Below, in pieces: positions 36,421-58,768 of a stretch of 64,000 nucleotides of DNA (within the stretch, counting starts at the first letter, position 1; each line of letters starts with the position of its first letter). Below the pieces are notes generated by a model, which worked only from the letters and a program-made list of their open reading frames with translations, did not search any database and was not told the DNA's origin. Origin of the DNA: Cyanidioschyzon merolae (Eukaryota); the NCBI GenBank assembly GCA_000091205.1, contig AP006497.2; one strand, written 5' to 3'. The translations under genes and the position numbers were made by a program.

Positions 36421-36780
36421 AGGCATCCTGCTTGTTTAGATACCGTTTTGTAGATCGCCACAGAATGAGAGTGACTTGGCTTTCAAACGGAATCGATGCA
36501 TTTTTGTGAAAAGTTCAACGATCTTTTGGTATGCGCTTGTGTACAAAACGTCGAGAGACGACACCCGGTTTTCTACGTGGATGCTGTGGCGAGCATACCT
36601 CGTCCCACGAGTTACCTCGAAACGCAAAGCTCGAGCTCTTGAAGCATGCTTGATTTGCACATGGAAGCCGTAGTAAAACGGGAAGCATGGATGCTTCCGC
36701 GTATATGCTGAATCATGGTTTCCATTAGTTTGCGCTCCGTTACATGAACGCGTCACGAATCATATCGATTCCGATGATGT
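36421..36780 (+). repeat. Dispersed repeat family L, copy 1 (about 350 bp). Possible MITE-like or ncRNA-like element.
   Basis: Shares a collinear series of conserved blocks with 57916-58265 (same strand) and 52925-53290 (opposite strand): ctgctt(g/c)t.tagat.ccgtttt.gtaga, ctttcaaacggaatcgat (18/18 in all three), catgaaaagtt, gc(a/g)(t/a)g(a/c)gcttg(a/t)g(a/t)aca(a/g), cctcgaaac, agcatg(c/t)ttgatttg, (g/t)gaatcatg(g/a)tttc, gaacgcgtc.cgaatcat. Copy 1 has a 10-bp terminal inverted repeat cggaatcgat / atcgattccg (36488-36497 and 36766-36775). Confidence 0.75.
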
Positions 36781-37634
36781 AACGTGTTCCCGCAGCAGAG
36801 TGGCAGACCAGCCACTCGGAAAATATCGCCGAGAATCCCTCAGCACGAGCACCTGGGCATGGAGTGTCGATGCAGTGCGTCTAGAAGGAAAAAAGTTCGA
36901 ATAAAAATCTCACACCAGCAACAGAGTGAACAAATCAGTGTTCCACTCTCATCTGAAACGGGTAGAGAGTCAGCGCCATTCTTGCGAAAGCGCTTTCGTG
37001 AATGTGGTCGCGTACCCGCAAACCTGCAAGCATACGTAAAACCTGCATACTTCCCGGGCGGATACTCAATATGTGAATACATGGCTTCGCTGGCCGTTGC
37101 TCCTTCAGATGCACACTCTAGCTGGTGACCGGACCACTAGTTCGGAGACTGAAGTCGCCCGCAAGCGGTACGCTCGGCGTGCCATCTGCTCGGAAACTCA
37201 CTGGAGCCAGCACCCACACAGGCTAAAGCAAAGCTGGTCTTTGTTCGTACGTCGTCCGCAGCGCCATTCACCAGGCACAGTTGTCGATACTCGATGGATC
37301 CATGCAAGACACCCGCGTGCATCGCATGAACGTACCATGATCACGAAGCAACTTCTGGTCTTGGATCCATGGTACACACGAGGTCCGGAAGCGCATAGCG
37401 GGCGCTTCTCTACCTGCCGATCGTAGTCGTGCACACGGGTAGACTGCGGTCAGGTTTAACGATCCCTAAGGATATGCAATAAACTCGTTCGAGCGCATCG
37501 TGCGGAGCTTTTCCCCCCGTGACCTACCGGAAGACTAGTCTAATAAAGCATGCTCTTCCAGTCACATCGATAGATTAGAATTCCATAGGGCACGAGCGGT
37601 CGTTCTTCGCCAGCACATTGCCCACTCTGCGGCG

Positions 37635-38155
37635 CAAGGTGCTGCCTCGTGCGACACGCTGAACCGATCCTCCGTTGATCAGCGTACACAGGGACGTTCC
37701 TCAGTGGATGCTTGTACACCTCTGCTTCGAAGAACGCAGACACCCAAAGCTTCGTGACTCGTTTCAAGGTGCTGCCTCGTGCGACACGCTGAACCGATCC
37801 TCCGTTGATCAGCGTACACAGGGACGTTCCTCAGTGGATGCTTGTAGACCTCTGCTTAGAAGAAAGCAGACACTCAAAGCTTCGTGACTCGTTTCAAGGT
37901 GCTGCCTCGTGCGACACGCTGAACCGATCCTCCGTTGATCAGCGTACACAGGGACGTTCCTCAGTGGATGCTTGTAGACCTCTGCTTAGAAGAAAGCAGA
38001 CACTCAAAGCTTCGTGACTCGTTTCAAGGTGCTGCCTCGTGCGACACGCTGAACCGATCCTCCGTTGATCAGCGTACACAGGGACGTTCCTCAGTGGATG
38101 CTTGTACACCTCTGCTTCGAAGAACGCAGACACCCAAAGCTTCGTGACTCGTTTC
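37635..38155. repeat. Tandem minisatellite A: 130-bp unit, 4 copies, in variant order A-B-B-A (units 1 and 4 identical; units 2 and 3 identical).
   Basis: Unit starts at 37638, 37768, 37898 and 38028, each beginning ggtgctgcctcgtgcgacacgctgaaccgatcc.... Variants differ at cttgtaCacctctgcttCgaagaaCgcagacacCcaaagc versus ...G...a...a...t. The array ends 1 bp before the SelO ORF. Confidence 0.95.
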
Positions 38156-38156
38156 T

Positions 38157-40316
38157 TTGCAACGTAGAGGCGTTCGACGGAAAGCAACTCACAGCTCAGG
38201 AAACGTTGCCCCGCCGCAAGCAGCGCGGCGCAACGGCATCCTCAGACGCAAGGCGTCGGGACTCGGAAACCAAAAATGTTGTTGGTTCGAGAACTCGACT
38301 ATGACTTTTTGGGCCTGGATTGCGCTCACGGGACACAGCGGAATTCATTCGAGGTCGAGTCTGAGAACGCTCCCACGAGAGACAGCGCGAGTACGTAGGG
38401 TGCTGTGGCGGTTGTCGCCTGAACACCCACATCTCGGGCGCAGTGTGTTTACACCATCCCGTACCACGGCGCGTCCGTCAGAAGCGCGTGAGCGACTACC
38501 GCGTAGCGCTTTGCCACACCTCCGCTCAAACTACTCCTTACCTGAAACAGCGATGCTCGGGAGCGGTACTGGACACGGAAGTTCTGATGGAAAGGGAGCA
38601 CCACTACCAGCAACGACGACGACGACGACACACCAGAGTGACGAGCGCCTGCTCACACTCGACGAACTAGTGCTGAGTGCGGGGTTCGCCAGTCGTCTAC
38701 CCGCGGACCCGGAAACTGCAAACTACGTCCGCGTAGTGCGCGGTGCGGCACTTTCGTTTGTGCACCCGTCACCGACCTGGACGGAGCCGGTGCTTGCTGT
38801 CTGGTCAGACAGGTGTGCGCGTGCTTGTCTTGACCTCGAGGTGAGGCCCTCAGAGCGAGACTATGCAGCACGTGTGTTCAGTGGCCTCGCGATGTTGCCC
38901 GGATCGCGACCCTATGCGCAGCGCTACGGCGGACACCAGTTTGGCGTCTGGGCAGGTCAGCTTGGCGACGGTCGTGTCATTGTGTTGGGTGAGTACCAGA
39001 ATCGATGCGGCGAGACCTGGACCTTGCAGCTGAAAGGCGCAGGCAAGACGCCGTTTGCTCGTTTCGCTGACGGGCGCGCTGTCTTGCGCAGCAGCGTGCG
39101 AGAGTTTCTCGCCAGTGAAGCGCTACATGCGCTGGGCATCCCTACCAGTCGTGCGTTGTCCCTTGTGGTCACTGGTGACAAAGTCGTGCGGGACATGTTC
39201 TACGACGGCAATCCACGCGAGGAGCCTGGCGCTGTCGTTTGCCGTCTAGCTCCTTCATGGGTGCGGTTCGGAACGTTTGAATTGGCAACGGACTGGAATG
39301 AGCTGGAGCTTCTTCGACAGCTTGCGGACGATACGATTGTACACCACTACCCGGCATTGCTGGCACATGAGCGTTCTCACGGCAAGCGCACATCCGCAGA
39401 CTCGAGCCGCAGCGCAAGAAATGAAGAGTCCCAGAACCCAATGCCGTATCGAGCGCTTTTACTCCAAGTCGCTGAACGAACAGCTGCGCTAGTTGCCGGC
39501 TGGCAAAGCGTCGGTTTCGTACACGGAGTCTTGAACACCGACAATATGAGTATTCTGGGGATCACCATAGACTATGGTCCGTTCGGCTTCCTGGACGCTT
39601 ACATGCCCGAGTACACGCCGAATACCACAGATCTTCCGGGTCGACGCTATTGTTATGCGTTACAGCCGACCATCTGTTTGTGGAATCTGCTTCAACTAGT
39701 GCGTGCATTCGAGCCGCTCACTGGTACTAATCTCTCGGAGGAAGTGAGTCAGACCTACGAGACCAAGTTTCGCGAAGAGATGTCCGCACGCCTGCGAGCC
39801 AAACTCGGTTTCCAAACCTGGAACTCGGATGCAGATAATGGACTTGTGCGGGACCTGTATGAGCTCATGCGTCAGGATCGAGCGGATTTTACACGCACCT
39901 GGCGAGCGCTGTCCTGGTTAGAGCCCGTTGCTTGTCTACAGAAAAGCGACGCCTCGCTCGAGCCGCTGCTTCGCGTACTCCCAGAGCCGGTTCGAAAGAA
40001 TCCGGACCGACTTGAAGCTTGGCGACTTTGGGTGCAACGTTACGCAGAGCGTACGCTGGCCGAAGACAACTTTGATGGGACTGCACGGCGCAAGCAAATG
40101 CAAGCCGCGTCTCCCAAGTACATTCTACGGAATTACATGGCTCAGGTGGCAATTGAAAAGGCGGAAAATGAACAGGATTTTTCGGAAATCGAGCGACTGC
40201 TCAAGTTACTCGAACATCCGTACGCAGAACAGCCCGAAATGGAGGCACTCTACGATCGGGAGCCACCGACATGGTCCCAGCGCCTTGGAGTGTGCATGAA
40301 CAGCTGCTCTTCCTAA
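38157..40316 (+). CDS. Protein adenylyltransferase SelO (SELENOO/YdiU, UPF0061).
   Basis: HGVLNTDNMSILGITIDYGPFGFLD and GDGRAVLRSSVREFLASEALHALGIPTSRALSLVVTGDKVVRDMFYDGNPREEPGAVVCRLAPSWVRFGTFE are near-verbatim SelO family blocks. The track start is TTG 38157. In-frame ATGs are at 38301 and 38553. The 38157-38552 extension is Arg-rich with no acidic residues, so it could be a mitochondrial presequence. Confidence 0.85.
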   Translation: MQRRGVRRKATHSSGNVAPPQAARRNGILRRKASGLGNQKCCWFENSTMTFWAWIALTGHSGIHSRSSLRTLPRETARVRRVLWRLSPEHPHLGRSVFTPSRTTARPSEARERLPRSALPHLRSNYSLPETAMLGSGTGHGSSDGKGAPLPATTTTTTHQSDERLLTLDELVLSAGFASRLPADPETANYVRVVRGAALSFVHPSPTWTEPVLAVWSDRCARACLDLEVRPSERDYAARVFSGLAMLPGSRPYAQRYGGHQFGVWAGQLGDGRVIVLGEYQNRCGETWTLQLKGAGKTPFARFADGRAVLRSSVREFLASEALHALGIPTSRALSLVVTGDKVVRDMFYDGNPREEPGAVVCRLAPSWVRFGTFELATDWNELELLRQLADDTIVHHYPALLAHERSHGKRTSADSSRSARNEESQNPMPYRALLLQVAERTAALVAGWQSVGFVHGVLNTDNMSILGITIDYGPFGFLDAYMPEYTPNTTDLPGRRYCYALQPTICLWNLLQLVRAFEPLTGTNLSEEVSQTYETKFREEMSARLRAKLGFQTWNSDADNGLVRDLYELMRQDRADFTRTWRALSWLEPVACLQKSDASLEPLLRVLPEPVRKNPDRLEAWRLWVQRYAERTLAEDNFDGTARRKQMQAASPKYILRNYMAQVAIEKAENEQDFSEIERLLKLLEHPYAEQPEMEALYDREPPTWSQRLGVCMNSCSS

Positions 40317-41430
40317 CAAATTAGGCGAAAAGGTGAGGTGTCTGGTTCGTGTACCCGATCGCATGGATAGACATCCACGGATGCCTATTGAAGCACCTGT
40401 AGGAATACTCCTACGAATACCTGCGCGGATACGGCTATGGACACAGGCATGTTCATGGGTGGCAATGGTTGAAGTGCACGATTCGTGCTGGAAACTGCCT
40501 GCAACCTGTCACGTTCACAGTGTGTTGTTGCAACTTGTTTCGCATGCGTCGCCAATGCCGCGTCCCGAGTTTTCTTTTTGTAAAGAACCGCTTTCACCGA
40601 ATACGGTTGGATGCGAATCTTGATGCTCTGGTGGATCATACGCCAGAGACTAGTGGGACCGCTGCAACTGTATATATTCTCAGGACGGCGCTGTTCGTCG
40701 ATCGCGTTTCCAGACACCACACCCGAGCAGTCCATATGATCAGTTCGCATCTATGGGTTCGCCCCGGAGACGCAACGCGGGAGACGTCTTTGCACCCGAT
40801 CCCATGGGTGAATCTGCATCCACCGAGAAAACCGAGTTGAGCGCTTACCTCGTACCGTTTAGGCGATCGCTTTTGAGATCCGATGCTAGCGGGGGTCGGG
40901 GTATCCGCTGACCTTTCTACGACTGGATGCCAGCGCTATGCAGCCTGAACCTCGTCGGAGCTGCTGCTTCGATCGCCATATGAAAACGTGAGATTCGATT
41001 CGTGCAAAGCCAACAAAGAGTCCATATGCAGAATACAAACTTTTCCTTCAGCAAAAGCAGCCTCTTGCAAGTAAGGATCTACGCGAGGTTTGTGGTGTAG
41101 GACCCGTACCTCATTCGCGCTGGGGCGTCTAGAGTGCTGGGGGTCTCCGAGGTGCCCCCGCTGCACGCTCCTGCCCTGCCGCCTGCGCTAAACAACACCT
41201 TTCATATACTGGGCACTCGCGCTCTCTCTACAGGTCCTTCGCTTCATTCATCAGCAAATATCCGCCTGAACGTTTGCCGGCACTGCAACACCAGACTTGG
41301 ATAACTGCATTCAATGAAAGAGTGACGCTCTTTTTCCAACGTAGAGCGCCACCAACCTACAACCGCGTCCTAACCTGCAGCTGTTGCAAGACGCCCTAAC
41401 GAGAGCATCTTCTGTACCGAACAATTTCCA

Positions 41431-41851
41431 TACCAGTGCTGCTCCCTAAGCGCTATCCTAACCCAGCGCACAGTGTCTTGAACGGTTTTGTGGTACGCAC
41501 TCGGAAACAGTTGGCGTACCAGTGCTGCTCCCTAAGCGCTACCCTAACCCAGCGCACAGTGTCGTTAACGGTTTTGTGGTACGCACTCGGAAACAGTTGG
41601 CGTACCAGTACTGCTCCCTAAGCGCTACCCTAACCCAGCGCACAGTGTCGTTAACGGTTTTGTGGTACGCACTCGGAAACAGTTGGCGTACCAGTACTGC
41701 TCCCTAAGCGCTACCCTAACCCAGCGCACAGTGTCGTTAACGGTTTTGTGGTACGTACTCGGAAACAGTTGGCGTACCAGTACTGCTCCCTAAGCGCTAT
41801 CCTAACCCAGCGCACAGTGTTGTTAACGGTTTTGTGGTACGTACTCGGAAA
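41431..41851. repeat. Tandem minisatellite B: 86-bp unit, about 4.9 copies.
   Basis: Unit taccagtgctgctccctaagcgctatcctaacccagcgcacagtgtcttgaacggttttgtggtacgcactcggaaacagttggcg starts at 41431, 41517, 41603, 41689 and 41775. It lies immediately 5' of, and overlaps, the CtpA-like ORF extension. Confidence 0.95.
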
Positions 41852-43946
41852 CGCTCCAGTGGCCGCGTCAGCGTTCGCTGTCCACCTGTGTGCCAGCCCG
41901 TTCAACGAGTGCAGTTCTCTTTTTGAAGATAGAGGCTTCTTTATGCTTCTATTCCAGTCTACACTGGTTCGAGTTTATGTTGTCCGGAGCCCGCCTCGCA
42001 ACCGACAACTGTGTCTCCGCGCTGACTCGAGTCAAGGACGACACCTCCTGGGAGCACGACCTGCACAGCAGACGACGACGACGACAACAACCACTACAAC
42101 TACAACTGCTGCGGCGTCGAGACCGATAACCAAGCTAACAGTATTGCGAGTACAGCAGCGTTTCTGGGAGCGCCATGGAAGCGCTCCAGCGCTGGCTTGT
42201 TCGCAGAGCCCGTTGCAGCCGCACCTGGGCGTCGGTGCAGAGGCTTGCACCCGGCAACGAATCTCAGACCTCAAGCCGAGCGTCGGTGAGCGCCTCCATT
42301 CAGCCTATTATACACGATTGCGGCAAGCTGTGGCGGTAGTTAGAAACTGGGTTTGTGTTGCAAGCGCGCTTCTCTTTGTCTACCTGAGTACCAGCGACCA
42401 GGTGGCCCTGGCGGCTGCCTCACTCGCCAATGGCATGCCTCAAGACCGTCTGGCTCTGGCAACGAGTACGCCCGTTCCAGATCGCTACCGAATTCTTTGG
42501 GAGCAGGCACTGGACATCATCACGAACCTTCACTACCAACCCGGTCAACATATCCATGCAGCCTCGTTAACCATGCCTTCGCACTTGCCGCCTACGCGTG
42601 CGTCCACGATCCCATGGGGATGCTCTCTGGGAACACGTGCCTCGACCTACGATGCCATTCGGATCCGACTCAGTGAATTGAATGATCCCTACTCACGTTT
42701 CCTGGAGCCGGATGAATTTGAGGCGGAACTGAATCCTTACCGGCGAGCTCGGAAGCTCAGCGGGGTCGGCATCATACCGGAGCGCAGTCCAAAAGGCCAC
42801 GGCACGCTGCGCGTTATAGCCGTTATTCCCGAGTCACCGGCTGAGGAGGCCGGAATCAACCCCGGCGATGAACTCGTTATGATTGACGATATTGTCGTCG
42901 AGCCTTCACCTTTGAACCCGATTCCTGTGACCCCCGATGAAGCGTTGGCGTTGCTGCGCGGCCCAGCGGGTACGCGGGTTCGTCTCACTGTGCGACAAAC
43001 GACAAACTCGTTGTCGTACGCTGATGCATCGCTGCAAGTAGCGTCAGCGTCCACAGCGCCGACCTCTATGATGCGTACATATACATTAACGCGGAGACCG
43101 CTTCTGGTAGCTCCGGCTGTCTACGGCCTTGTCGCCGCGGAGCCCACTTTCGGTTACATTCGCCTCCATACCTTCAACGCCGAAGCGACACGTATCGTCT
43201 TCGAGGCTCTGAACGCATTCAAGAATTCTAGCGATCGTTCGGCAGCGGCTGGTGTTATCCTAGACCTGCGCAACTGCCGAGGTGGCGTCTTCCAGGAAGC
43301 ACTGGTGATTGCTTCGATGTTCATCGCAAACCCCGATGCCGTACTCGTCTACACCGTCGACAGTCGGGGTATCGAGCGCGCACACCGGGTGCGTGACCAG
43401 TGGAACGGTTGGCCTGAAGCTCCTGCTGCCGCTGCTCGTACTCCTCGTACTCCTCCTGAGACGCTCGGGAGCGCGGCGTCGGCCCGGCATCCGCTGTACA
43501 ATGGCCCACTGGTGGTGCTCGTCAATGGTGCCTCAGCTTCCAGTAGCGAAGTGCTTGCGATAGCCTTGCGCGATCACGGACGAGCAGTGCTGTTGGGCAT
43601 GCCAACTTTTGGGAAAGCCCGCATCCAACACTACTTCCCGCTTTTGGACGGCTCGGCGATCGCGCTCACTGTCGGGGAGTTTCTCGGCCCGCAGCACGAA
43701 CGCCTCGCGGACCACGTCGGCTTAGTGCCGCAGGTCTCCTGCAACGCTGCACCCCGGAACTTTGCGCTCCTAGAGAGACACACGCCACCAGATGCCTGCA
43801 TCGCAGAGGCAGCTCAGCTGCTAAGCGAAGAACCCACGGGGTCATCGGCTACAGAGCCGGTGCCGGTCGGTGGCTCCGTGCGGTCTGCGTTCACATCCCG
43901 AAGCAGGTCCACTGAAACGACACTGTTGCCTCGGATCCAAACCTGA
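41748..43946 (+). CDS. Carboxyl-terminal processing peptidase (S41, CtpA/tail-specific protease-like) with a PDZ domain.
   Basis: PDZ region GVGIIPERSPKGHGTLRVIAVIPESPAEEAGINPGDELVMID. S41 catalytic region ILDLRNCRGGVFQEALVIASMF ... VVLVNGASASSSEVLAIALRDHGRAVLLGMPTFGKARIQ (Ser/Lys dyad context). The track start is GTG 41748, inside an 86-bp tandem array. The first ATG beyond the repeat is 41943. Confidence 0.8.
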   Translation: MVRTRKQLAYQYCSLSAILTQRTVLLTVLWYVLGNAPVAASAFAVHLCASPFNECSSLFEDRGFFMLLFQSTLVRVYVVRSPPRNRQLCLRADSSQGRHLLGARPAQQTTTTTTTTTTTTAAASRPITKLTVLRVQQRFWERHGSAPALACSQSPLQPHLGVGAEACTRQRISDLKPSVGERLHSAYYTRLRQAVAVVRNWVCVASALLFVYLSTSDQVALAAASLANGMPQDRLALATSTPVPDRYRILWEQALDIITNLHYQPGQHIHAASLTMPSHLPPTRASTIPWGCSLGTRASTYDAIRIRLSELNDPYSRFLEPDEFEAELNPYRRARKLSGVGIIPERSPKGHGTLRVIAVIPESPAEEAGINPGDELVMIDDIVVEPSPLNPIPVTPDEALALLRGPAGTRVRLTVRQTTNSLSYADASLQVASASTAPTSMMRTYTLTRRPLLVAPAVYGLVAAEPTFGYIRLHTFNAEATRIVFEALNAFKNSSDRSAAAGVILDLRNCRGGVFQEALVIASMFIANPDAVLVYTVDSRGIERAHRVRDQWNGWPEAPAAAARTPRTPPETLGSAASARHPLYNGPLVVLVNGASASSSEVLAIALRDHGRAVLLGMPTFGKARIQHYFPLLDGSAIALTVGEFLGPQHERLADHVGLVPQVSCNAAPRNFALLERHTPPDACIAEAAQLLSEEPTGSSATEPVPVGGSVRSAFTSRSRSTETTLLPRIQT
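42071..42106. repeat. (ACG)5(ACA/ACT)n tract, encoding poly-Thr in the CtpA-like N-terminus.
   Basis: gacgacgacgacgacaacaaccactacaactacaact. Confidence 0.9.
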
Positions 43947-45308
43947 CCGAGTTGCGCACCCGTTCGGCAGTCTAGAGCATCCGACAGCACCAGGTTCGCG
44001 TAGTGATCAAAACCGCTGAGTTTTCCGCGCACGCACCTGTTCGCGTTCAGGTACACTTGGACGGAATGAAACAGCAACGCTTCGAGTTCCGCAGTATCGA
44101 CCTCGTCTTTTGCCATAAACCAAGCTGATCAACAACCAACACGACGCTGGTCAAATGCTTGGACGCACGCGGGTTTCCCACAGCCTGCCAAGACGCCGTC
44201 GCAGGGTACCGGCAAACGCACTTGTGTGTATGTTGCTGAGTTGCGCGACGTTTCTGTGCATATCCGAAGCAGGAGCAGCAGTAGTTCCAGCCCAGGAAGC
44301 CTTTCGTTTCGACCTTTCAGGAACGTGTAGTGCGCACGTCGTTTTGACGAAAAGTCACCTTCCCTGCGATAACCGACGACTCAACCTGGACTGCAGGGTA
44401 AAGTCGTTGCAGCGCGTTCGGGTGTACGCGCGAGCTCCACGAGTCGCCAGTGAGTGCCTCGGCATACCTCGACCTCGACGGTGTTCGTTGAACCCAGAAC
44501 ACGAATTCGGGAGCTTGGTTGCCTCAAGGCGAAAGCGAGCGACAGGCACTTCTCGGAGTCTGTGGGTGTTTCTGGTGCCTATCCCAGTCTGTGGCCGGAG
44601 TGTGTCCGTTCGTCCAGTTCAAGCGGAGGTGTACCGAGTGTCTTGAGCAGCGTGCGGACGTCTGGGTGTCACGGTGGCTCTCTGTGGTGCGTCCTGCCTT
44701 CACGGGCGTGATTCAGACTGCACCCGCGAGCATGCGCTACTCACTCGTGCTGCAAACGCCCGCCACCTGCGCAGTGTTGCAGGCGAGAGACAGCGGAACC
44801 TACCGCTATGCGACTTGGCGTTAGGTGCGTAGGTATATGCGTTTATGCGACGGAAGCAACGTTGTTGTCGAGTACCTGCCCGCGGGTTATCTGGGACCGT
44901 GTTGAGATTCACGTTTACGCATTCTCTATATATGCTGCCTTTAGATGAAGCTGCCGCCTAGCCTAGCCAAGCGCATCTCTTCCTAGGCACCAGAACCCGC
45001 TCTGGTCCAAGATATGCACGCGTATCCATTCCCGGCTTTTTGGTGACGCTCAGGGAGTATTCCTTGTCCGGCTGGGTATGCCACTACTTGATCAGCGCTT
45101 TCAAAAGCAGATGCCAGCCCCGCGCACCAGCGCGTCCAGCGTTTACATTACAGGCTTGCACACCGCCGCTACCCGCTGGTATCATACGCCGGTTTGTCTT
45201 CATCGTGAAGCTCTTCGTTCCACGACTTGCTCTACCAGAGTCTCCGATGCCGCGGTAGCATGTCTGGGAATGCTCTACCTCCGGCAAACGCACACACACT
45301 CACTCCTT

Positions 45309-45329
45309 CACAACAACAACAACAACAAC
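45309..45329. repeat. (CAA)6-7 microsatellite.
   Basis: cacaacaacaacaacaacaacc. Confidence 0.9.
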
Positions 45330-45362
45330 CAATGGGAATCGAACAAGGCACAGATGCACGCC

Positions 45363-48695: not shown

Positions 48696-49868
48696 TGCTT
48701 CAGCACGCGCCCAGTCAAGTTCTTGGTGCTGGTCGAGCGTCTGTCTCTGGAGTTACCGCTTGTGTGAGGCGTTACGGGTAGCCTGCGGTGGCAACTTGAT
48801 CGAACCGTGCGCTCTCTGAGCAAAGCCTCCACTGGATACCTTCGGGCAACGCGAGCTGAGCGAAATGCAGCCACAAACTATCGTCTACGAACTTTGAAGC
48901 GACTCTGAGATAGGACCTAGCGACGCAGTTCACCCTGAAAAGTCGATGTTCGGTTGCGAGCAGGCAGAGCAGCTTGTTCAGTCTGATACGTCAGCAACTG
49001 CCTCTCTGGAATACACCTTTTATTGGCAGCGCTCCCTGATTATAAACACTGTTTGCAATCACCTCTCCAGATTTATGGGATGCACTCGTCACACTGGTTC
49101 TGTGGAGTCGCGTTCAGGCCGGTGCGCCAACAAGTGCCTCCCTGGACCAAACCGGTTATTGAGGGTGCTCGCCGATGAAACACACCGTTCGCAGTCGCTT
49201 TTCCAGATCTATAAGATGCACTTGTCAAACCTGTTCCCTCGAGTCGCGTTTCGCGCTGTGGCACTCCCTCGAGGAGGCAAGTGGTTGCGTAGGACACGAG
49301 GCCGCCTGCCGGTCGTTGCAACGTCTGGTACCCCGAGCGCGATACGATGCGTCTCGCGTGGCTCTGGAGCCGTGTGGAGCACCCGCCACCCAGCGACTGT
49401 GAGGCCGAAAGCCCAGCGATGCAGATCATCAGGAGTGCCGCTCAACCGGGATCATCGAACTTCATCTGATTCCGCTTCAGCTCAGTTAACTCCAATGAAT
49501 TCCAGTTTATCTCTTCTGACCTCATTCCATCTCAAATGATCCCACTCGTTGGGATAGCAAGGACGCTTGGTAATTTTGCAGGGTACGCATCAGGAATATA
49601 AGAGCTATCATGAATACTCATCACGAGAGGCACTTGGCGCTGGGAGAGTCCCACGAACGAATGAAAGGATCACCGGAGGCAAGTATAGGTCATGGCGAGT
49701 GGTCAGCAGAACGCTCGGGAGAGATCGTGAGGCGTCATCACGACTGCCTGCCCGGAAACCGATACGCGTCGTGCAGTTGGGAATCCCTGTTTGCTCTACG
49801 CGATGCAACGTCATGGTTATCCATCGAGGGTGGCGCTCGGGCTGGTCTACTGGAGCGCGTGCACGCAC

Positions 49869-49883
49869 GCACACACACACACA
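49869..49883. repeat. (CA)7 microsatellite.
   Basis: cacacacacacacac. Confidence 0.9.
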
Positions 49884-50205
49884 CTTCGCAGTTTACCGCC
49901 TGATGATCATCGCCCAGGTACACCGTCAACCATCTACGTAGCGTGCACTTGCATCCGATTTCTTTCGTTTCCATACCCCATGACGCCTTTTCGAATGCAT
50001 TCTGCATCGACAACGACGAGCACACGAGTGACTGCAGCTGACGTTTCTCGCTTCCTATAACCCGAAACGCTCGGCAACGACGCATCTCTCGAGAGCATCG
50101 CCCGCAGCCTCGGAGCATCGCAGAGGACCTGATTGCATGCAACGATGCTAGTCCATAAACCGATGGAAAAGAATTGACCCTGTGTATGGGAGCATCTGCA
50201 GCTTG

Positions 50206-50436
50206 CAGCTCATATCCATCACAAGCATCTGTACGAACACCACCGGGTTGACTGCCACACGAAGCTCTCGGGGGTGCGCGGGCAGCTCATATCCATCACA
50301 AGCATCTGTACGAACACCACCGGGTTGACTGCCACACGAAGCTCTCGGGGGTGCGCGGGCAGCTCATATCCATCACAAGCATCTGTACGAACACCACCGG
50401 GTTGACTGCCACACGAAGCGCTCGGGGGTGCGCGGG
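50206..50436. repeat. Tandem minisatellite C: 77-bp unit, 3 copies.
   Basis: Unit cagctcatatccatcacaagcatctgtacgaacaccaccgggttgactgccacacgaagctctcgggggtgcgcggg at 50206, 50283 and 50360. It lies about 200 bp 5' of the ALDH gene. Confidence 0.95.
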
Positions 50437-50640
50437 CGCTCGCGCTTTGCGTCCCGATCCGGCTGTGTGAAGCGAGGCGCTCGCGGGCGATACGCACGAC
50501 TGCCGAGTGTATCTCGACGGCTCGGGTGAGCGCGTGGAGCACTGTCGACCGCAGGTGACCATCGGGTGCAGCTTAGACCTGGTCAAAGTGTACGACGCAT
50601 ATACTCCATTACGCGTAGCGGTTGACGCTGACGGAATAAG

Positions 50641-52245
50641 ATGCTGACGTCAGCAGCTGACGACTTGTCGTCGGGATATCGGGAGGTAAGGGCGGAGCTG
50701 GGCGAAGCCTTTCGGAGTGGGGCAACACGCTCGCTTCGTTGGCGTGCAGCGCAGCTGGAAGCCCTGAAGCAGGCGCTAGTGGAACAGGAGCGCGCAATCA
50801 TCGCGGCATTAGCTGATGATCTCGGGAAGAGTGCTGAAGAGAGTCAGCTTACCGAGCTACAACCCGCACTCCAGGAACTAGCGTTGGCGCTGGGGAACCT
50901 GAAGCTCTGGGCTGGGCCCCGCACGGTAGAACCCTGCTTAGCACCCAAGTATCTGGCGCCGTGGTTCTGGTTGCAACGTGTTTGGCGCGCGGTGCTTCCT
51001 CGAGTACTGGGCGGTGGCAACCCGCCGGTGGCAAGTTACGGCGGCGTAGCACTGGCGACGATACTGGAGCGTCGCTGGGTCGTTCCTGAACCACTGGGCG
51101 TGGTGCTGATCATCACAGCCTGGAACTATCCTCTACTGCTTGCGATTTGGCATATGACAAGTGCTATCGCCGCTGGGAACTGTGTCGTCTTGAAACCAAG
51201 TGAACGTGCTCCTGCAACAGCAAAACTGCTGGCAGAGCTGGTGCGCACCTATCTCGATGCTCGCTGCATCCGAGTCGTGCTGGGCGATGCCAGCACTGTT
51301 CGGCGTCTGCTTCATCTGGATACCGAGTGTCCGGCGGATGTTGCGTTCCGCGTTTGGGCACAGCAGCGCCCTTTTGATGCGGTGCATTTCACGGGCGGCT
51401 GGAGGATTGGGCGTGAAATCGCACGCGCTTGTGCGGCCTACCTGATACCGTGCACGCTCGAACTGGGCGGTAAGAATCCGCTTGTGGTGGACTGTGCATC
51501 GCTGTCCGAGCGAGACTTGGCTCGGGTTGCCCGAACGACCGCATGGGCCAAGTTACTGAACGTGGGTCAGACGTGCATCGCCCCGGATTATGTGGTTCTA
51601 TGCGGTGCAGACCGGGCACAGGAGGCGTTCTTCATAGAAGAGATGTGGAAATCGATTGAAGCATTCTACGGGAGGCCAGTGGAAAACAGCACGACCTTCC
51701 CACGGATCGTGAGCAAGGCACATACCGCCCGTCTGGCGGACCTGCTCCAACAAAGCCGTGGTGAGGTTGTGTTCGGTGGAACCCACCGAGAGAATGACTG
51801 CTTTTTCACGCCGACCATTGTGCGCAATGTGACTCTGGATGATGCGCTGATGGCGGAGGAGATTTTCGGGCCGATACTGGTTGTTCTGCAGCCGTGTGCT
51901 GGTACCGAACAAGCGCTCGAGGTGATCGGGAGTCTACCATCTCCGCTGGTAGTCTATCTAATGTCTCGTGACGCTGCTGTGGTGCAGCGTTTTGAACGGG
52001 CATCCACCTCTGGATCGCTTGTCGTGAATGATCTGCTGGGTCAGGTAATCTCGCCGGGTCTTCCGTTTGGCGGGGTCGGCGCTTCTGGATACGGCAAGTC
52101 CAAAGGTCAAGCGGGGTTCGATGCGTTCTCGAACCTCAAGAGTGTCCTCTGCAAACCGATATGGATAGAGCGAATAGCGAGTGATCGCTACCATCCACTA
52201 ACCGCTACCAAGATCAGTCGTTTTCGTCGCTTAATCGCGCTCTGA
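50641..52245 (+). CDS. Aldehyde dehydrogenase, class-3 / fatty-aldehyde dehydrogenase type.
   Basis: ATG 50641 checked. Glu-motif LELGGKNPLVVD and catalytic Cys motif VGQTCIAPDYVV, plus FTGGWRIG. The length of about 530 aa fits ALDH3 with a C-terminal hydrophobic tail. Confidence 0.85.
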   Translation: MLTSAADDLSSGYREVRAELGEAFRSGATRSLRWRAAQLEALKQALVEQERAIIAALADDLGKSAEESQLTELQPALQELALALGNLKLWAGPRTVEPCLAPKYLAPWFWLQRVWRAVLPRVLGGGNPPVASYGGVALATILERRWVVPEPLGVVLIITAWNYPLLLAIWHMTSAIAAGNCVVLKPSERAPATAKLLAELVRTYLDARCIRVVLGDASTVRRLLHLDTECPADVAFRVWAQQRPFDAVHFTGGWRIGREIARACAAYLIPCTLELGGKNPLVVDCASLSERDLARVARTTAWAKLLNVGQTCIAPDYVVLCGADRAQEAFFIEEMWKSIEAFYGRPVENSTTFPRIVSKAHTARLADLLQQSRGEVVFGGTHRENDCFFTPTIVRNVTLDDALMAEEIFGPILVVLQPCAGTEQALEVIGSLPSPLVVYLMSRDAAVVQRFERASTSGSLVVNDLLGQVISPGLPFGGVGASGYGKSKGQAGFDAFSNLKSVLCKPIWIERIASDRYHPLTATKISRFRRLIAL

Positions 52246-52924
52246 GACTCGAGCGCGGACTCGCGGTAAACACGCGATGTGCTCAGGATACGTCCGAGAG
52301 CGCCCGAATGTTTTCGTCGGTGGACAATATCGGGGACCTTGGTGGATGGAAACGGGTGCATTGACAAATCGAGCTACACGTATCGCCGCGGCATCGATTC
52401 TGAATCGTTTGGGCTGCACTGCGGCCATCGGGTCGTTACGTTGTGCGAAATACCGGTGTGTATGGCGTCGATGACGGACTACCGCGTCGCTTAGGGCGTA
52501 TTCGAAGACGGTCTGTTCTGATGCGCCACTGGCATCCGGTCTTGCGGTGTCGTTCCAGCGGGAGCACTTCGAGCGCCATCTAGCGTTTCACGCGAGCTGC
52601 ACCGCATGCTTCCTCATCCTATCGTCCATGCAGCGTTTACGCATTCTTCCGAAACTGTTGCTGCTGCGCTGCTGAATGCCATTTTCGTGAGACGACGCTG
52701 TGGGTATCGCGCACCGCTCCACCCGTGTCGGATGAAAATGGAAGCCTGAACTGCTGGCGCCTTGCCTGCTTATCGGTTTTTTCCCGATTGCACATAGATC
52801 TACAACCTTGACGTTCGATATGCAGCAATCAGGGTATACGATTGCATTTGTAGTTTGAGGATTCTCGGTCGTTTTTTTTCGGAGACGCTCCTTCGACGCT
52901 TTGCCGCTGCCGTTGGTGACGTCG

Positions 52925-53290
52925 TCGCCATCACGATGATTCTCGACGCGTTCGAACGAGACTTTTTAAATTCAATGACGTCTTTGTCGAATTCATATGT
53001 GCAAGCCTCGACTTGTCTCGTTTTCTCGCGCATGCGATAATCAAATCAAACATGCTATCAGTTTTCGATTCTTCTGTTCCTGTGCAACTCATGGGTGCAG
53101 CAATTCGCGCCGATGAACTGACGACGAAGAAAAAGTCGACGCTGTCCCATGGTCACTTGTTCACAAGCTCTTGCCAACGGTTCACTGAAGTGTTCATGTC
53201 AAAAAATCGATTCCGTTTGAAAGAAAAATCCTCTTCTCAATGTAACCATTGACGGAGCTGCGTTCAACATCCATAGGATATCTCTAACGG
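52925..53290 (-). repeat. Dispersed repeat family L, copy 2, in inverted orientation.
   Basis: The reverse complement aligns block by block with copies 1 and 3 (see 36421-36780). Confidence 0.7.
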
Positions 53291-53525
53291 GATTCGCAGG
53301 TAAAGAATCCGGTCCTTCGGACTTGTATGTAAGCTGGTGCAGAACATGAGTCATCGCGGTGATCGCTTGCAGTCGAGTGTGCATCATCGCTTTTGAGCGA
53401 AGGGTGCGCCAACGGATCGAAAGTCCTCGACGTGTTCCCCAGCCGTGAATTGCAGTTCGGTACTAGATTCATCACGATTCACATCGTGCGCCATGCATGC
53501 TTTACCGAATGGCATAGCGTTCTGT

Positions 53526-54467
53526 TTACACATGCAACCTGAAGAGCATGCGCAGAGCGCGCTCGCCCAGGAGCAGCACGTCATTGCAGGAGACGGCTCT
53601 GGGCATGGAAACGGAGCAAGGCATGGTAGGGAGCCCTCTGGATCCGTCAAGGGCATGTAACGAGCGATGAAGCGAGCCTTGACGTGCTGCAGGACGGCGC
53701 TCGAAAGATGAAGAGGTGTGTTGGATACATAAGTGCACTTGACAGCATGCACATGTTACCGCTTTGAAGCGCGCACCGGGCTCTACACAAAAGGAAACGA
53801 AAACGACAAGCGAAGCGTAACGCAACTTTCGTCTGTGTATAAAATGCGCCGTTGACAGCAACCGGAATCGGGGAAAGCGGAGCTTGAACGCCTCCAGCAA
53901 CATGCTTCGACTGCTGACAACGGAGCTTGAGGAAAACCCGAAACCAATGTATTCAGACCTTGATCTATGAGAGCACGAAAAGGAAGCACTCACAGCACAG
54001 TCCCGCAACATCTGGTTTTGATGACAGCCGCAAGAGCCCTCGACTTGCGTGCATACGCCCGAGATCGCCGCGTGCACCTCTTCCAAGTTCACGCTGACAC
54101 AGGCGTCGTCTAGGTGCTCGAGGACGGCATTGCTCTGCCCGCAAGCCGCATGCCCATGCAGTGCATACAAGCTCTTCCAAATCGTCACCTGTACGTAAAA
54201 ACAATACCAGCATTTCTCTATGGAGATTACGGTCACTATCGTTTCCGAGGCAAGTGCGTTGTCTCCATCTGCAGGAACGCTGGGGGCGCTCCCTTCTGGC
54301 TGCTCGATCGCTCGCCTCGCCCGGTGCGGGAAACTTATACCGGCCGCTTTGGCAACCAGCGGCGCGAGCGCAGCCCAACGTCGCCGCTGGCGTTGCGCTT
54401 GCTGCTGGTCAGGCCTGGAACTACTTCCAGGCAGCGGCACGAACCTCCGGGCGCCTGCAGAAGACAC
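53526..54467 (-). CDS. Hypothetical ORF, 313 aa, low complexity.
   Basis: ORF only. Overlapped by + strand ORFs. Confidence 0.2.
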   Translation of the reverse strand: MSSAGARRFVPLPGSSSRPDQQQAQRQRRRWAALAPLVAKAAGISFPHRARRAIEQPEGSAPSVPADGDNALASETIVTVISIEKCWYCFYVQVTIWKSLYALHGHAACGQSNAVLEHLDDACVSVNLEEVHAAISGVCTQVEGSCGCHQNQMLRDCAVSASFSCSHRSRSEYIGFGFSSSSVVSSRSMLLEAFKLRFPRFRLLSTAHFIHRRKLRYASLVVFVSFCVEPGARFKAVTCACCQVHLCIQHTSSSFERRPAARQGSLHRSLHALDGSRGLPTMPCSVSMPRAVSCNDVLLLGERALRMLFRLHV

Positions 54468-54687
54468 GCATCACTATCGTTCGTCTTCGTAAGTCTTTTA
54501 TTGGATATAAAGGCATCAGATCAGGCGTGCGCAGGTGATTACTGTACATAACGGCCATATGTGATGCTGGTGCGCGCACGCGTTTTTCCAGCAGCGCTCC
54601 TTCGCCGCCGTTTGACGATACCGGCCGCTGACGGGCGCGACACGTGTCCACAAGCGCTCAGGGAGCGCGTGTCCATACGACCTGGCG

Positions 54688-55797
54688 GTGCCGATTTACA
54701 GGGCGCGCGTTCATGCTGCGGCAGGTGAGAGCGCTTTAGAACAATCCTCGTGTGCTGCGTCCGAGGTCCTGCGTTCGAGTCGTGGACAGCGTGCGTCAAT
54801 GACAGAGTGCTACACACTAACACGGCGCGTAGTCCGTGCACACAACCATGAAAACGACGCCTGGGTGATCGTTCGTGGTGGTGTCTATGACGTGACGGGG
54901 TTCTTGCGGTACCACCCGGGCGGGCGGGACGTCCTCTTGAAGCGTTTGGGCGAGGACGTCACCAGTGTTATGAACGGCGAGCTCAAAGGTGGTCACGAGC
55001 ACTCCAGTGCGGCGTATAAAATTCTGCAGCAGTACTACGTAGGCCCGCTGGCTGACGCGGACGCTTCTCCCGCAGAGGCAGCCGCCCTAGACGGCACGCT
55101 GGACGAGCACGGTAGACCGCTGGTCGACTTTAGTAAGCCGCTTCTGGACCAGGTTGGTAAGCTTGGGGATAAGTATCACCGCTGGGTGCATTCTTTTCCG
55201 ACCAGCGACCATCATGTGGCCCTTTTCGCGAACCCGACGCTCGAGTCACTGACAAAGTGTCCCTGGTACGTGCCGCTAGTGTTCTGGATTCCGATCTTTG
55301 TCTGCGGGCTGTGGTTTGTGTTTGCGCGCCTCGGTTGCTCGTTTGTTCGAGATTTCCTACCGTTCACGACGTTTGGCTATATATTTTGGATGTTCTTCGA
55401 ATATCTGTTACATCGATATGTATTTCACGTGCGGACCGGGACGTACTGGTCGAATATCTTTCATTTTCTTATTCATGGACATCACCACCTGGCGCCGATG
55501 GATTATGATCGACTCGTGTTTCCACCGATTCCCGCAGCGCTCGTCTCGATGCCGGTATGGCTGACTGCACCTCGAGTGTTTGGTCTCGTGCGCGGACTGT
55601 GCTTCCTTTTTGGATTCGGTGTTGGGTACCTTCAGTACGACATGACACACTTTCTGGTGCATTATGGAACGCTACGTACGGGGTTCTTAGCCGCTCAGAA
55701 ACGGCGGCACATGATACACCATTTCAAAGCACCAGGGGCGAATTTTGGTATCAGTGTTCCCGTGCTGGACATTGTGTTCGGGACATTGCACCGGTAA
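54688..55797 (+). CDS. FA2H: Fatty acid 2-hydroxylase (FA2H/Scs7-type): N-terminal cytochrome b5 fused to a di-iron fatty-acid hydroxylase.
   Basis: Cyt-b5 HPGG motif (VYDVTGFLRYHPGGRDVL). Four His boxes (HRYVFH, HGHHH, HYGTL.../HMIHHFK) in a 4-TM hydroxylase domain. The first ATG is 54799 (the track start is GTG). Confidence 0.85.
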   Translation: MPIYRARVHAAAGESALEQSSCAASEVLRSSRGQRASMTECYTLTRRVVRAHNHENDAWVIVRGGVYDVTGFLRYHPGGRDVLLKRLGEDVTSVMNGELKGGHEHSSAAYKILQQYYVGPLADADASPAEAAALDGTLDEHGRPLVDFSKPLLDQVGKLGDKYHRWVHSFPTSDHHVALFANPTLESLTKCPWYVPLVFWIPIFVCGLWFVFARLGCSFVRDFLPFTTFGYIFWMFFEYLLHRYVFHVRTGTYWSNIFHFLIHGHHHLAPMDYDRLVFPPIPAALVSMPVWLTAPRVFGLVRGLCFLFGFGVGYLQYDMTHFLVHYGTLRTGFLAAQKRRHMIHHFKAPGANFGISVPVLDIVFGTLHR

Positions 55798-57915
55798 CAA
55801 CCACTGGTTTTCGCACACGCCTGCATGGACGAGCATGCCAACGAGAAGTGCGGTATTTCTGGACGGCGCGTCGAGCGCAGCGTGATGGATACCCACGGGC
55901 GGCTTGCGATGCTCGTATGGAGTCAAGCGTGCCTTGAAAGAGAGGTGTTTTTCTGGTTTGCTTGGTAACATCCATACGAAAACAAATTCATGATACAAAC
56001 GCACCTGAGTGTTAGATAGCTGATGAGCTGCTAGCAGACTGCTTTTGTATTCTTGCGAGCTGCGTTCCGCGCGGGCCCGTGCACCTGCACAGTAATTAGC
56101 CTCTCCTATGGGCGTGTGGTCCCCGCTCCACGTGCGACATACAGCCTGCGCGCTTTGGGCATTGCGGTTGCGGGTATCAGTTTGCTTGGTGGTGCCTGTC
56201 CGGAGACTTGCTTCTCGGGTATGGTGAGGTAACGCAGGTTTTCACCTGCTTCTGCCGCCGCTGTCGCACACCAAGGATGGACGCTACAATCACATCTTTG
56301 TAAAAGATTTGCTGTGCCCGATCACCGCGGACCTCGTTGACATGGTGCTTTGGAGTAATGACAGAGGAATCCACGCTGTTGTGGACGCCGGGTTCTGCAG
56401 CCCCTCCGAGCGCCTGCTGTTGGCCGGTCGCTGGAACGAACGCGCAGAAGCCGCTAGCCTTGGCGGGCCCATAGTTGGACAGCTTCTTGTCAGTCGATTC
56501 GTCGCTAAAGATGCCAGCATTCTCGAGTACGCGAGAACCTCGCATCGATATCCATGGGCGTTTATTACCGGCGACGATTCTGCTGAACAGGGCTGGTGGG
56601 ACTTGTTCCATGTCCCAGTATCGTACCACCAAACAGTTGAATTTCTCCTCGTACTGCTGTTCATGTGCAGATACAGCTCATTGACTCGGATGATCCAAGC
56701 AGATGTGCACCCGCGCGAGCACCTCGTGGAGTGGAAGAATAGGGGAAACCCCCAGCACATGTGCTCGCGACCCTATGTAAACCCGAGGGATGGGTGCAGC
56801 GATCGACGCTCTTCACCAGCGCCGAACGCTCCCTTGAACCTAGGATAAATACACAGCGGTGTTCAGAAGAGACTGGATCTGGGTTCTAGTGATTGATAGC
56901 GTCTCCGCACGCGTTCCATGCCAGCTCGTTTCCTCGGTGCGGTACGTGGAGAGAAGATCGCCACGATCGCTTGCAGTGGTGGTATCGGCGGCGCGCCTGC
57001 GGATAGACTCGGGTGAGGTCGCTGCGAAAAGCTCGAAAAGTCGCGCGTTGCTACCCGGCCCGTTGCCGCAATCCCGTACCGTGGTGTGAGACGTCGTCTA
57101 GACTCGTGTCAGAATCAAATGGAAGAGGTCCTTTTTTCGCGAAAACTAAGGTGTGCACGCTAAAATTTTGGTCTCTTTCCATTGTCATGAACAGAAGTCT
57201 TGTTGGCTTTTTCTGCAACTGCTTGCTGTTCCCCTCTCTGCTCCGTGGCTCTGAATACACCGCGATCTGCTCTGCCTTCAGCTCCGTTGTACGTTGTCGA
57301 AGGATATTGCTCGAAACGATCATGTCCCGATATCGCCATGTTCAGCTGTTGTCGACGCTTTACACACATAGAGAAATGTTACGATCCTCGCATTGCTTTC
57401 CATTTTCAATTTTGGTTGTATAGGGCACCGGTATGCGCTTCGCGGCGGTCGCATTTGGCCGTGGCCAGGTGCTCCCGGATGTTCAAGGATCCTCCTACTC
57501 CGCCTCCGAGCGCAGCCCCGTAACGCGTGAACTCTTGCATCAGCGCTCGGTACTTGTCACGGAGAGGAAAAGAAGGCCTCCGGCGATTTGCCCCTCAAGT
57601 GCGGCGCCCGGTGCCATAAACCACGTTCATGAGCGTATCCTAGTCGAACTCTTCGACGGGTACTCTGTCCGGTGCACTTGCAAGCGCACGTTATTCGCTT
57701 CGATGGAGCATTTGCGCATCGCGATCTTGTCGCTGGCGAAACAAACACCCGCAGGAAAATCCAGACATGAGCAGGACCCGAGCTGTTTCGATCGTTCAAT
57801 GCTCGCTTGATGCAAAGCGGTGTCGCACGCGCAGCTGGAAGCAGCTTCCGTGATGACTGGAGTCCGAGTTCATAATGCATTCCCATGAAAGCAGAACAGA
57901 TAAAAGCTTCTGGAG

Positions 57916-58265
57916 GCATGTCCCGTCAGCGATATTCTGCTGCTTCTAAGTTCGGTTTCGTAGAAAGCCAAAAAGACAGGAAGAAATATCTTTCAAACGG
58001 AATCGATGATTGAGCATGAAAAGTTTCACGAACATGCGGCATGAGCTTGAGAACAGGTAGTCAAGACCGATGTAGAGGTTTTTTGCTTTGCAAGCCCAGC
58101 GACCCCAATTGCTGCGCCCACAAACTGCCTCGAAACAGACAGGTCGAATACTTGGAAGATTCATGATTCGAGCATGCTCCACACAACGAAAGGAGAAGAG
58201 CGGATTCTCGCACATTTGAACTGGATCATGATTTCTTTGATTTTACGAACCCTAGTTCTCGGATA
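57916..58265 (+). repeat. Dispersed repeat family L, copy 3.
   Basis: Aligns block by block with copy 1. It lies about 230 bp upstream of minisatellite D. Confidence 0.75.
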
Positions 58266-58491
58266 TCGCGACTCTTGTTGGTTCTGGTGACGTTCCGTTC
58301 TCCTGTACCAATGCATCGAAACAGGCACTCCGCGAACACGACAGAGAATACTAGGGAACTACGTATCAGTGCATAGGTCCTCATCATTACATGATGGAAG
58401 TCCAGGATGTCCTTCTATAAAGCTATGAAAACATTCTACTTGCAACAAAGAACACCCTGCTCCGTGTTCCATTTTAAACTGGCACAGTAGG

Positions 58492-58728
58492 AATACTAGC
58501 AAGCAATGGGATGCTTCTCGGCACCTTATAGCGCACCCGAGTACCTCACCTGCCATGATCCAGTCACCGCAATACTAGCAAGCAATAGGATGCTTCTCGG
58601 CACCTTATAGCGCACCCGAGTACCTCACCTGCCATGATCCAGTCACCGCAATACTAGCAAGCAATAGGATGCTTCTCGGCACCTTATAGCGCACCCGAGT
58701 ACCTCACCTGCCATGATCCAGTCACCGC
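58492..58728. repeat. Tandem minisatellite D: 79-bp unit, 3 copies.
   Basis: Unit aatactagcaagcaat(g/a)ggatgcttctcggcaccttatagcgcacccgagtacctcacctgccatgatccagtcaccgc at 58492, 58571 and 58650. It lies about 120 bp 5' of the MYSM1-like ORF and is followed by (GC)10. Confidence 0.95.
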
Positions 58729-58768
58729 AACAGCGTCGTCGCTGCCCTGCGCGATGCTGCACCAAAGA

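Follow-up and report, generated by a model that had tools for sequence, protein, structure and literature searches.

Family L is a group of dispersed intergenic repeats carried by the Cyanidioschyzon merolae 10D genome, and three of its copies lie in the 64,000-nucleotide stretch of chromosome 15 (contig AP006497.2) that was analysed here and is referred to as the window. Judging from its defined ends, its dispersal and its absence from orthologous sites in related genera, we consider family L likely to be an old, immobile, and decayed non-autonomous DNA transposon of the terminal inverted repeat (TIR; class II-like) type, about 1.4 kb in length and specific to Cyanidioschyzon. An initial inspection of the letters without database searches (the sequence-only reading) had proposed a non-autonomous DNA transposon in the form of a miniature inverted-repeat transposable element (MITE) or, in its place, a family of structured non-coding RNA (ncRNA) genes. 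The transposon part of that proposal is supported by the dispersal of the copies, the empty orthologous sites and a 32-bp TIR, whereas the unit is too long for a MITE and the inverted repeat that had been put forward is the wrong one.

Three full-length copies in the window

The presence of three homologous copies at the places and in the orientations first reported (two on the + and one on the − strand) was confirmed, as was their location in intergenic DNA. Their size and similarity, on the other hand, had to be revised. The repeat had been described as about 350 bp long and about 70% identical, yet the true unit measures 1.33-1.42 kb, with the earlier coordinates covering its best-preserved core alone; identity amounts to 56-60% within that core and 55-59% over the full length, against 42 ± 3% for unrelated intergenic pieces treated by the same alignment method. 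Copy-to-copy alignments by sensitive BLASTN and nhmmer extend over ∼1.2-1.4 kb, with nhmmer E-values of 1e-57 to 1e-84. Within the unit, 30-50% of the columns are invariant across the three copies, compared to ∼15% outside, and the edges are sharp. A five-copy nhmmer profile delimits the window copies to 1326-1416 bp, and a sensitive profile search (E up to 10) recovered no further relatives from the remaining ∼60 kb of the window. The GC content of the consensus is 51%.

Copy P1 lies between a gene for a 380-aa protein and SelO, and spans 35650-36970 on the + strand when its decayed terminal repeats are included (nhmmer 35642-36967); its inner termini, TGTCAG..CTGACA, are found at 35662-36958, and it is 98% identical to the corresponding copies of other strains (L003, L007, L026). 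Copy P2 (57095-58496, +; nhmmer 57078-58493), placed between the FAH and Myb-MPN genes, is the copy whose terminal inverted repeats are preserved best; it borders on a 79-bp tandem array at 58492. Copy P3 (52714-54111, −; nhmmer 54126-52716) is full length as well, inverted relative to P1 and P2, and located between the 3′ end of the ALDH gene and an RNA gene resembling that of the signal recognition particle (SRP) RNA, beyond which the FAH gene follows; its inner termini are at 54099 and 52726. Two features that had been singled out in the first copy do exist. However, the 10-bp inverted repeat of P1 (36488/36764) is internal rather than terminal and occurs in P1 only, the perfect hairpin (36681) is likewise internal and absent from all other copies, and both are only marginally unusual (P=0.04). 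U-tracts 3′ of a shared 18-mer, also noted at the outset, are not conserved among the copies.

An ancestral terminal inverted repeat

To fix the termini, each end was aligned separately with eight to nine copies; an earlier, strict single-copy test on fuzzy ends had been negative for both TIRs and target site duplications (TSDs). The consensus 5′ end reads GCTTTACACTCATGTCAGCGTAAAATGGAACA and the reverse complement of the consensus 3′ end GCTCTCCACCCGTGTCAGATTAAAATGGAACA. Together they form an ancestral TIR of 32 bp without gaps, in which 26/32 positions match (score 20), while scores from two null sets, shuffles and random pairs of internal segments, averaged 6.2 and did not exceed 13 over 3000 trials. 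The TIR is individually significant in P2 (P=0.004), P3 (P=0.003), and P4 (P=0.011), the last being a copy outside the window. In P2, the 5′ arm (57095-57126, +; ancestral consensus GCTTTACACTCATGTCAGCGTAAAATGGAACA) faces a 3′ arm at 58465-58496 (−), and a standard repeat finder reports this pair with arms at 57106-57124 and 58467-58485. In P3, the 3′ arm occupies 52714-52745, where it reads as a TIR on the + strand of the window, and the 5′ arm 54080-54111 (−). A search with the inner TIR pattern returned three sites in the window (0.05 expected), at 57107-57125 (+), 58466-58484 (−), and 52726-52744, all of them inward-facing termini of family L; no other element bearing this TIR was found in the window.

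The inner TGTCAG...CTGACA pair recalls a solo long terminal repeat (LTR), but both the inverted repeat and the homology between copies reach ∼12 nt further out, no TSD was found, and a coding core between paired direct copies was not observed. LTR elements have not been reported in C. merolae (PMC1955436), although Ensembl masks some in this genome.

Absence from related genera

Gene order around all three window copies is kept in Cyanidiococcus yangmingshanensis and around two of them in Cyanidium caldarium, and the P1 locus was in addition recovered from a further metagenomic relative (L001). The orthologous gaps are consistently shorter there. Between the 380-aa gene and SelO (P1), C. merolae has 3165 bp, as opposed to ∼1190 bp in L001 and ∼1214 bp in Cyanidiococcus; the gap between ALDH and FAH (P3) measures 2553 bp versus 1344 bp in Cyanidiococcus and 446 bp in Cyanidium; and that between FAH and Myb-MPN (P2) at least 3048 bp versus 1088 and 134 bp, respectively. 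Neither the profile of family L nor its TIR nor the 18-mer left any trace in these gaps (all three in Cyanidiococcus, two in Cyanidium, and that of P1 in L001). This absence is informative because the SRP-like RNA next to P3 can still be aligned in the same gaps and thus serves as a positive control. Short orthologous gaps devoid of family L agree with the published finding that repeat expansion lengthened the intergenic regions of Cyanidioschyzon (12.7% of the genome compared to 0.59% in Cyanidiococcus; PMC9812998).

The conserved gene order runs RRM protein-DnaJC11-SelO-S41-TPP enzyme-ALDH-FAH-Myb-MPN in Cyanidioschyzon and Cyanidiococcus, and is partly retained in Cyanidium. For the Myb-MPN region, 58846-60789 of the window was compared with 10088-11959 of contig L038 and 9146-10738 of contig L039. 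The stepwise shortening of spacers between genera (e.g. 3048, 1088, 134 bp) represents a clean local case of genome-size change through intergenic DNA alone.

Family size and genomic distribution

An exact-match scan for the 18-mer across JGI metagenome contigs yielded 31 loci, from which a profile search sifted the real copies, leaving chance matches aside. Upon clustering, the three window copies proved to have been resampled in other strains at 98-99% identity, and three new paralogs (P4, P5, and P6) emerged, each 55-64% identical to the others. A protein database search with the translated consensus retrieved three open reading frames (ORFs), all of which fall within further copies that lack the exact 18-mer (N1-N4). 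Both routes are biased, that by the 18-mer towards too few copies (the ORF-based search added four without the motif), so that the copy number is a lower bound. Family L accordingly comprises at least 10 copies in both orientations on at least four chromosomes (3, 5, 15, and 19): P1, P2, and P3 in the window on chromosome 15; P4 and P6 on chromosome 5 (neighbours BAM79265, CME038C); N2, N3, and N4 on chromosome 3 (neighbours BAM78971-78975); N1 on chromosome 19 (neighbour BAM82783); and P5, which could not be placed on a chromosome. They form tight local clusters, with three copies in 22 kb, three in 12 kb, and two in 8 kb. Copy N4, a member of the 12-kb cluster on chromosome 3, was seen twice at the same locus (L036, 10427-11423; L037, 6719-7715) and carries an internal deletion of ∼415 bp (profile positions 770-1184) that takes out the region of the 18-mer.

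Neutral decay of a non-coding unit

The five full copies are 55-59% identical in all ten pairings, and a neighbour-joining tree of nine copies is star-like. Under a homogeneous star-decay model with a retention of ∼0.73 per site per lineage, the predicted invariant fraction is 0.39 for three copies and 0.21 for five; we observed 0.393 and 0.228. Between strains, 1.64% of the sites in family L are variable, compared to 1.48% in other intergenic DNA (p=0.52) and 0.69% in coding sequence. Together, the strain variation and the invariant fractions imply that most of family L is decaying neutrally.

Family L is non-coding. Comparisons of the copies by tblastx met stops in every frame, with similar scores and no preferred frame, and the indels are not multiples of three. 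In the majority consensus of five copies, a window of 349 codons on the reverse strand held just two stops (P=0.008), and an ORF of 201 aa was also present (P=0.05). When four more copies were added, the same two stops remained and a different ORF, of 282 aa, appeared on the other strand. Codon-usage log-odds trained on the genes of the window were positive for 14/14 real genes and negative for either consensus in each of its six frames. Searches against Pfam and PHROGs returned no match in family L, and a comparison of the consensus translation with 5.8 billion proteins found no homologues outside the copies themselves. We therefore discarded the marginal ORF of the first consensus as a relic gene, since it failed with the added copies, in codon usage, and in the Pfam, PHROG, and 5.8-billion-protein searches. 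A paralogous gene together with its 3′ flank was also ruled out, given stops throughout and equal tblastx scores in all frames, as was a promoter or untranslated region of a downstream gene, since P5 is flanked by convergent 3′ ends and P3 runs convergent to ALDH. Besides, ORFs that encode 100-313 aa lie inside or across copies of family L and the SRP-like RNA (53526-54467, −; 35964-36461, −; 57013-57810, +). With negative codon-usage scores and no homologues, they are artefacts of composition; metagenome gene callers nevertheless label such ORFs as hypothetical proteins.

As for the RNA level, 54 RNAalifold windows (150 columns each, both strands of the five-copy alignment, covering pairs up to 150 nt apart) gave z-scores from −1.8 to +2.3 with a mean of ∼0 relative to column shuffles that preserved conservation and gaps, and the consensus energies were near zero. 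Scanning five copies against Rfam revealed nothing within family L even at E up to 1, the sole match being the SRP fragment outside it. A structured ncRNA family, the second option of the sequence-only reading, thus finds no backing: there is no conserved fold relative to shuffles and no Rfam family, and the unit decays neutrally without constraint above that of intergenic DNA. A short interspersed element (SINE) or another retroposon derived from tRNA or 7SL RNA was rejected as well. ARAGORN detected no tRNA-like sequence, a terminal A-tail is missing, and the SRP match lies outside family L; nor do the copies show the variable 5′ truncation of SINEs, most of them being full length with the same 5′ end.

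An 18-mer kept intact in five copies

The sequence-only reading had stressed conserved blocks, one of them a perfect 18-mer. Of such blocks, one is a real outlier, the 18-mer, and a 9-mer accompanies it. As had been claimed, the 18-mer (CTTTCAAACGGAATCGAT) is present in all three window copies. It occurs exactly three times in the window (0 expected by chance; no other site with up to three mismatches), as exact matches in P1 (36480-36497, +), P2 (57990-58007, +), and P3 (53206-53223, −). The 9-mer, GCTCCGTTG (35834-35842 in P1 coordinates, +), is shared unchanged by P1-P5 and has decayed in N1-N4. In both the three-way and the five-way alignment the 18-mer is the longest invariant run, followed by the 9-mer, whereas the longest run in 5000 shuffles was 15. 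It is intact in P1-P5, which do not form a clade, and in N1-N4 it is decayed to 15/18, 11/18, or ∼9/18 or deleted. Under the decay model, its chance of survival is ∼0.0035 per copy, and a shared run of this kind in the three window copies has p ∼3.5e-5.

Gene conversion of the 18-mer is argued against by the immediate divergence on both flanks. Strain variants are not depleted within 60 nt of it (7 observed, 6.0 expected), and RNAalifold detected no local RNA fold. By eye, it fits neither an LTR primer-binding site nor an RNA polymerase III (Pol III) B box, a snoRNA guide, or a heat-shock element, and it contains an AACGG Myb-like core and an ATCGAT palindrome. The 18-mer probably marks a protein-binding site, used either by the active element or, since then, by the host. 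A more specific proposal, namely that the transposon brought in a candidate binding site which strict purifying selection in the host has preserved in five or more dispersed copies (on chromosomes 15 and 5, and one unplaced), is put forward tentatively and with considerable doubt. If true, a dead transposon family would have seeded a few functional sites, be they regulatory, chromatin-boundary, or replication-related, in a highly streamlined eukaryotic genome. Comparable cases would be the exapted sites borne by MIR- and SVA-derived elements of mammals, in which a short motif is likewise kept in a subset of otherwise decaying copies; in family L, however, the copies take varied positions relative to genes, including one between convergent 3′ ends.

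Weighing the alternatives

One alternative does not contradict a transposon origin and would merely change whether the family is already known: family L could be part, or an internally deleted derivative, of the WSV repeat of C. merolae, which has been described as a transcribed sequence of on average 3.2 kb, present in 253 copies on all chromosomes, accounting for ∼5% of the genome, and containing a truncated ORF weakly similar to WSV486 of WSSV (Nozaki et al. 2007, PMC1955436; PMC5405695). The published description fits an old, diverged, and intergenic repeat (PMC1955436, PMC5405695), and what the two have in common is the same genome, interspersed copies in intergenic DNA, old age and divergence, truncated ORFs that look spurious, and an unclassified origin. 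Moreover, three copies in a 64-kb window exceed the expectation for a family of ∼10, copies of family L contain ORFs of 160-280 aa that gene callers pick up, and the published BLASTX similarity, at 1e-5 to 4e-2, may be too weak to define a real protein. Compared on the basis of that description, however, family L differs in size (1.4 versus 3.2 kb, with sharp edges at 1.33-1.42 kb in all full copies) and in abundance (at least 10 copies on at least four chromosomes versus 253 on all). Its ORFs are unstable between consensus builds and negative in codon usage, the sensitive profile detected no additional relatives in the other ∼60 kb of the window, and no WSSV protein was matched at E up to 10 among the 5.8 billion proteins, in a search that covered one strand and frame and required shared 5-residue words. 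We therefore think an identity with the WSV repeat unlikely. Less probable still is that the copies are paralogous long ncRNA genes or cis-regulatory modules maintained by selection, with the 18-mer as their functional core and the likeness to transposons incidental or ancestral. This would account for the perfect 18-mer in a set of five copies that is not a clade, and for the lower strain variability of paralog-invariant columns; C. merolae repeats have been reported to be transcribed (PMC1955436), and each copy has a space of its own whatever the orientation of the neighbouring genes. Yet neither strand has a conserved secondary structure, Rfam offers no family, the overall divergence is that of neutral decay, and strain variation equals that of other intergenic DNA without depletion near the 18-mer. 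What is more, the motif is lost or deleted in four copies of the same species, relatives that have kept a genuine neighbouring ncRNA lack family L, and the position of P5 between two convergent 3′ ends does not suit a promoter role shared by all copies.

Two further explanations carry very little weight with us. According to one of them, the copies are pseudogenes left by a protein-coding gene that has since died out, which could for instance have been the coding portion of a viral insertion or of an old mobile element. It draws on the 349-codon window (two stops, P=0.008) and the 201-aa ORF (P=0.05) of the five-copy consensus, and on reverse-strand ORFs of 229-280 aa that are open in N1 and N4. 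But the two stops persisted when four more copies were added, and the 282-aa ORF that arose instead lies on the opposite strand; in codon usage, where 14/14 genes are positive, none of the six frames and neither candidate ORF exceeds zero; tblastx treats all frames alike, and neither Pfam nor PHROGs nor the database contains a homologue beyond family L; we hold this origin to be highly improbable. The same, and to a slightly greater degree, applies to a segmental duplication of intergenic DNA in place of transposition. While the tight local clusters on three chromosomes would be in keeping with such an event, in every full copy the homology breaks off abruptly at the same pair of edges, without ever reaching into flanking genes, and these edges are inverted repeats of each other. 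In addition, copies within a cluster are no closer to one another than to copies on other chromosomes, and both orientations occur within a cluster.

This leaves a decayed TIR transposon as the preferred interpretation, against which several observations nevertheless weigh. The TIR is not significant in P1, P5, N2, and N4, and the stricter first test missed it. A pooled scan for TSDs (offsets 0-21, lengths 2-11) found none, its power being limited by the decay of ∼27% per site per copy; the best signal was 8 bp long, at the outer edge of the TIR, with 22/56 matches and p=0.03 before any correction for the 220 tests. A TIR pattern search, which covered the window, revealed neither a transposase nor an autonomous partner sharing this TIR. 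The clustered copies are, unusually, as diverged from each other as from those on other chromosomes. Finally, columns invariant among paralogs vary less between strains than the rest (0.71% vs 1.92%, p=0.02), and a perfect 18-mer in five copies is unexpected for dead transposon DNA and is not explained by neutral decay.

Likeness to known elements and proposed history

With class II non-autonomous TIR transposons, family L shares a defined, non-coding unit with a TIR of ∼32 bp, dispersal in both orientations, local clusters, restriction to one lineage, empty orthologous sites, and a star phylogeny that fits a burst followed by decay. It differs from them in that no TSD is evident, no autonomous partner is known and hence no superfamily can be given, the copies are very old (55-59% pairwise identity), and an internal 18-mer is kept far better than the terminal repeats. 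MITEs are usually under ∼800 bp. Family L resembles them in being non-autonomous, non-coding, TIR-bounded, and intergenic near genes, yet at 1.33-1.42 kb it has about twice their usual upper size, its known copies number ∼10 rather than hundreds or thousands, and it is not AT-rich.

As for its history, family L would have spread in the Cyanidioschyzon lineage once that lineage had separated from Cyanidiococcus and Cyanidium. An autonomous element may have provided, in trans, a transposase that recognised the TIRs and moved the unit by cut-and-paste, often to nearby sites; frequent insertion nearby would explain the local clusters. Activity would then have ceased, after which about a quarter of the bases may have been lost from each copy in an almost neutral manner. 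Insertions of family L, along with tandem arrays, might represent much of the intergenic length that C. merolae has gained.

C. merolae is a minimal model eukaryote that has been called almost transposon-free (0.7% of the genome, eight transposase-related elements, no MITEs). Only 8 transposase-related elements have been reported (PMC1955436), and a MITE survey of 41 plant genomes reported none for C. merolae (PMC3964958). Family L suggests that at least part of the long intergenic DNA of this organism traces to the old burst of a TIR element, one which standard homology-based annotation cannot classify, and it supports the notion that repeat expansion, not gene content, separates the 16.5-Mb genome of C. 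merolae from the 8.8-12 Mb of its sister genera. In practical terms, the copies are candidates for neutral integration sites of transgenes and add a caveat to reading intergenic conservation as regulatory. The 18-mer, for its part, provides a small, testable case of possible exaptation, as homologous recombination makes precise deletions easy in C. merolae.

Genes, SRP-like RNA and other repeats of the window

The window has a GC content of ∼56%, and its intron-less genes, spread over both strands, come at about one per 3.3 kb; tRNAs and Rfam matches at the gathering threshold number zero within it. CYME_CMO323C corresponds to the ORF at 599-2623. The genes that flank family L comprise the 380-aa gene (33993-35135, −), SelO (38301-40316, +; 671/671 residues identical to XP_005537699.1), the ALDH gene (3′ end at 52245), the FAH gene (54799-55797, +), and the Myb-MPN gene (58846-60789, +). 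Along the window, the genes bear protein accessions in unbroken order, BAM81651-81667, which leaves no space for an annotated protein in the gap that contains P1.

The spacer between P3 and the FAH gene contains a probable SRP (7SL) RNA gene at 54245-54475 on the − strand (core 54290-54331). Its helix 8, the SRP54-binding core, matches the Rfam family Metazoa_SRP with 27.8 bits, under the gathering score. The syntenic Cyanidiococcus site is 70% identical over 240 nt and has a Protozoa_SRP match of its own (32.3 bits; L038:7384-7591), and the syntenic Cyanidium gap is 87% identical over 39 nt (the helix-8 core). The z-score of its fold is just −1.86, and the spurious 313-aa ORF at 53526-54467 (−) overlaps it. 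A link between family L and Pol III genes was considered and dropped, since P3 alone adjoins such a gene and there are no tRNAs by the other copies.

Other dispersed intergenic repeats are found at 10034-10603, 13011-13187, 18290-18593, and 28285-28513, and in a pair of regions (29532-29709/30285-30328 versus 62166-62343/63519-63562). Their identities range from 82% to 66%, some are inverted, and a profile search showed them to be unrelated to family L; they may include the published 253-copy repeat. Tandem arrays of two to five long units occur at 37635-38155, 41420-41852, 50205-50441, 58492-58730, 62284-62520, and 48976-49250 (units of 130, 86, 77, 79, 84, and 138 bp, respectively). Several of them lie directly upstream of genes (SelO, S41 protease, ALDH, Myb-MPN), and their sequences are mutually unrelated. 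The arrays and family L together would make up much of the extra intergenic length relative to the sister genera. Of all sequence classes, the arrays vary most between strains, with 4.5% variable sites and differing unit numbers; two of the 130-bp units, for instance, are missing in L003, L007, and L026.

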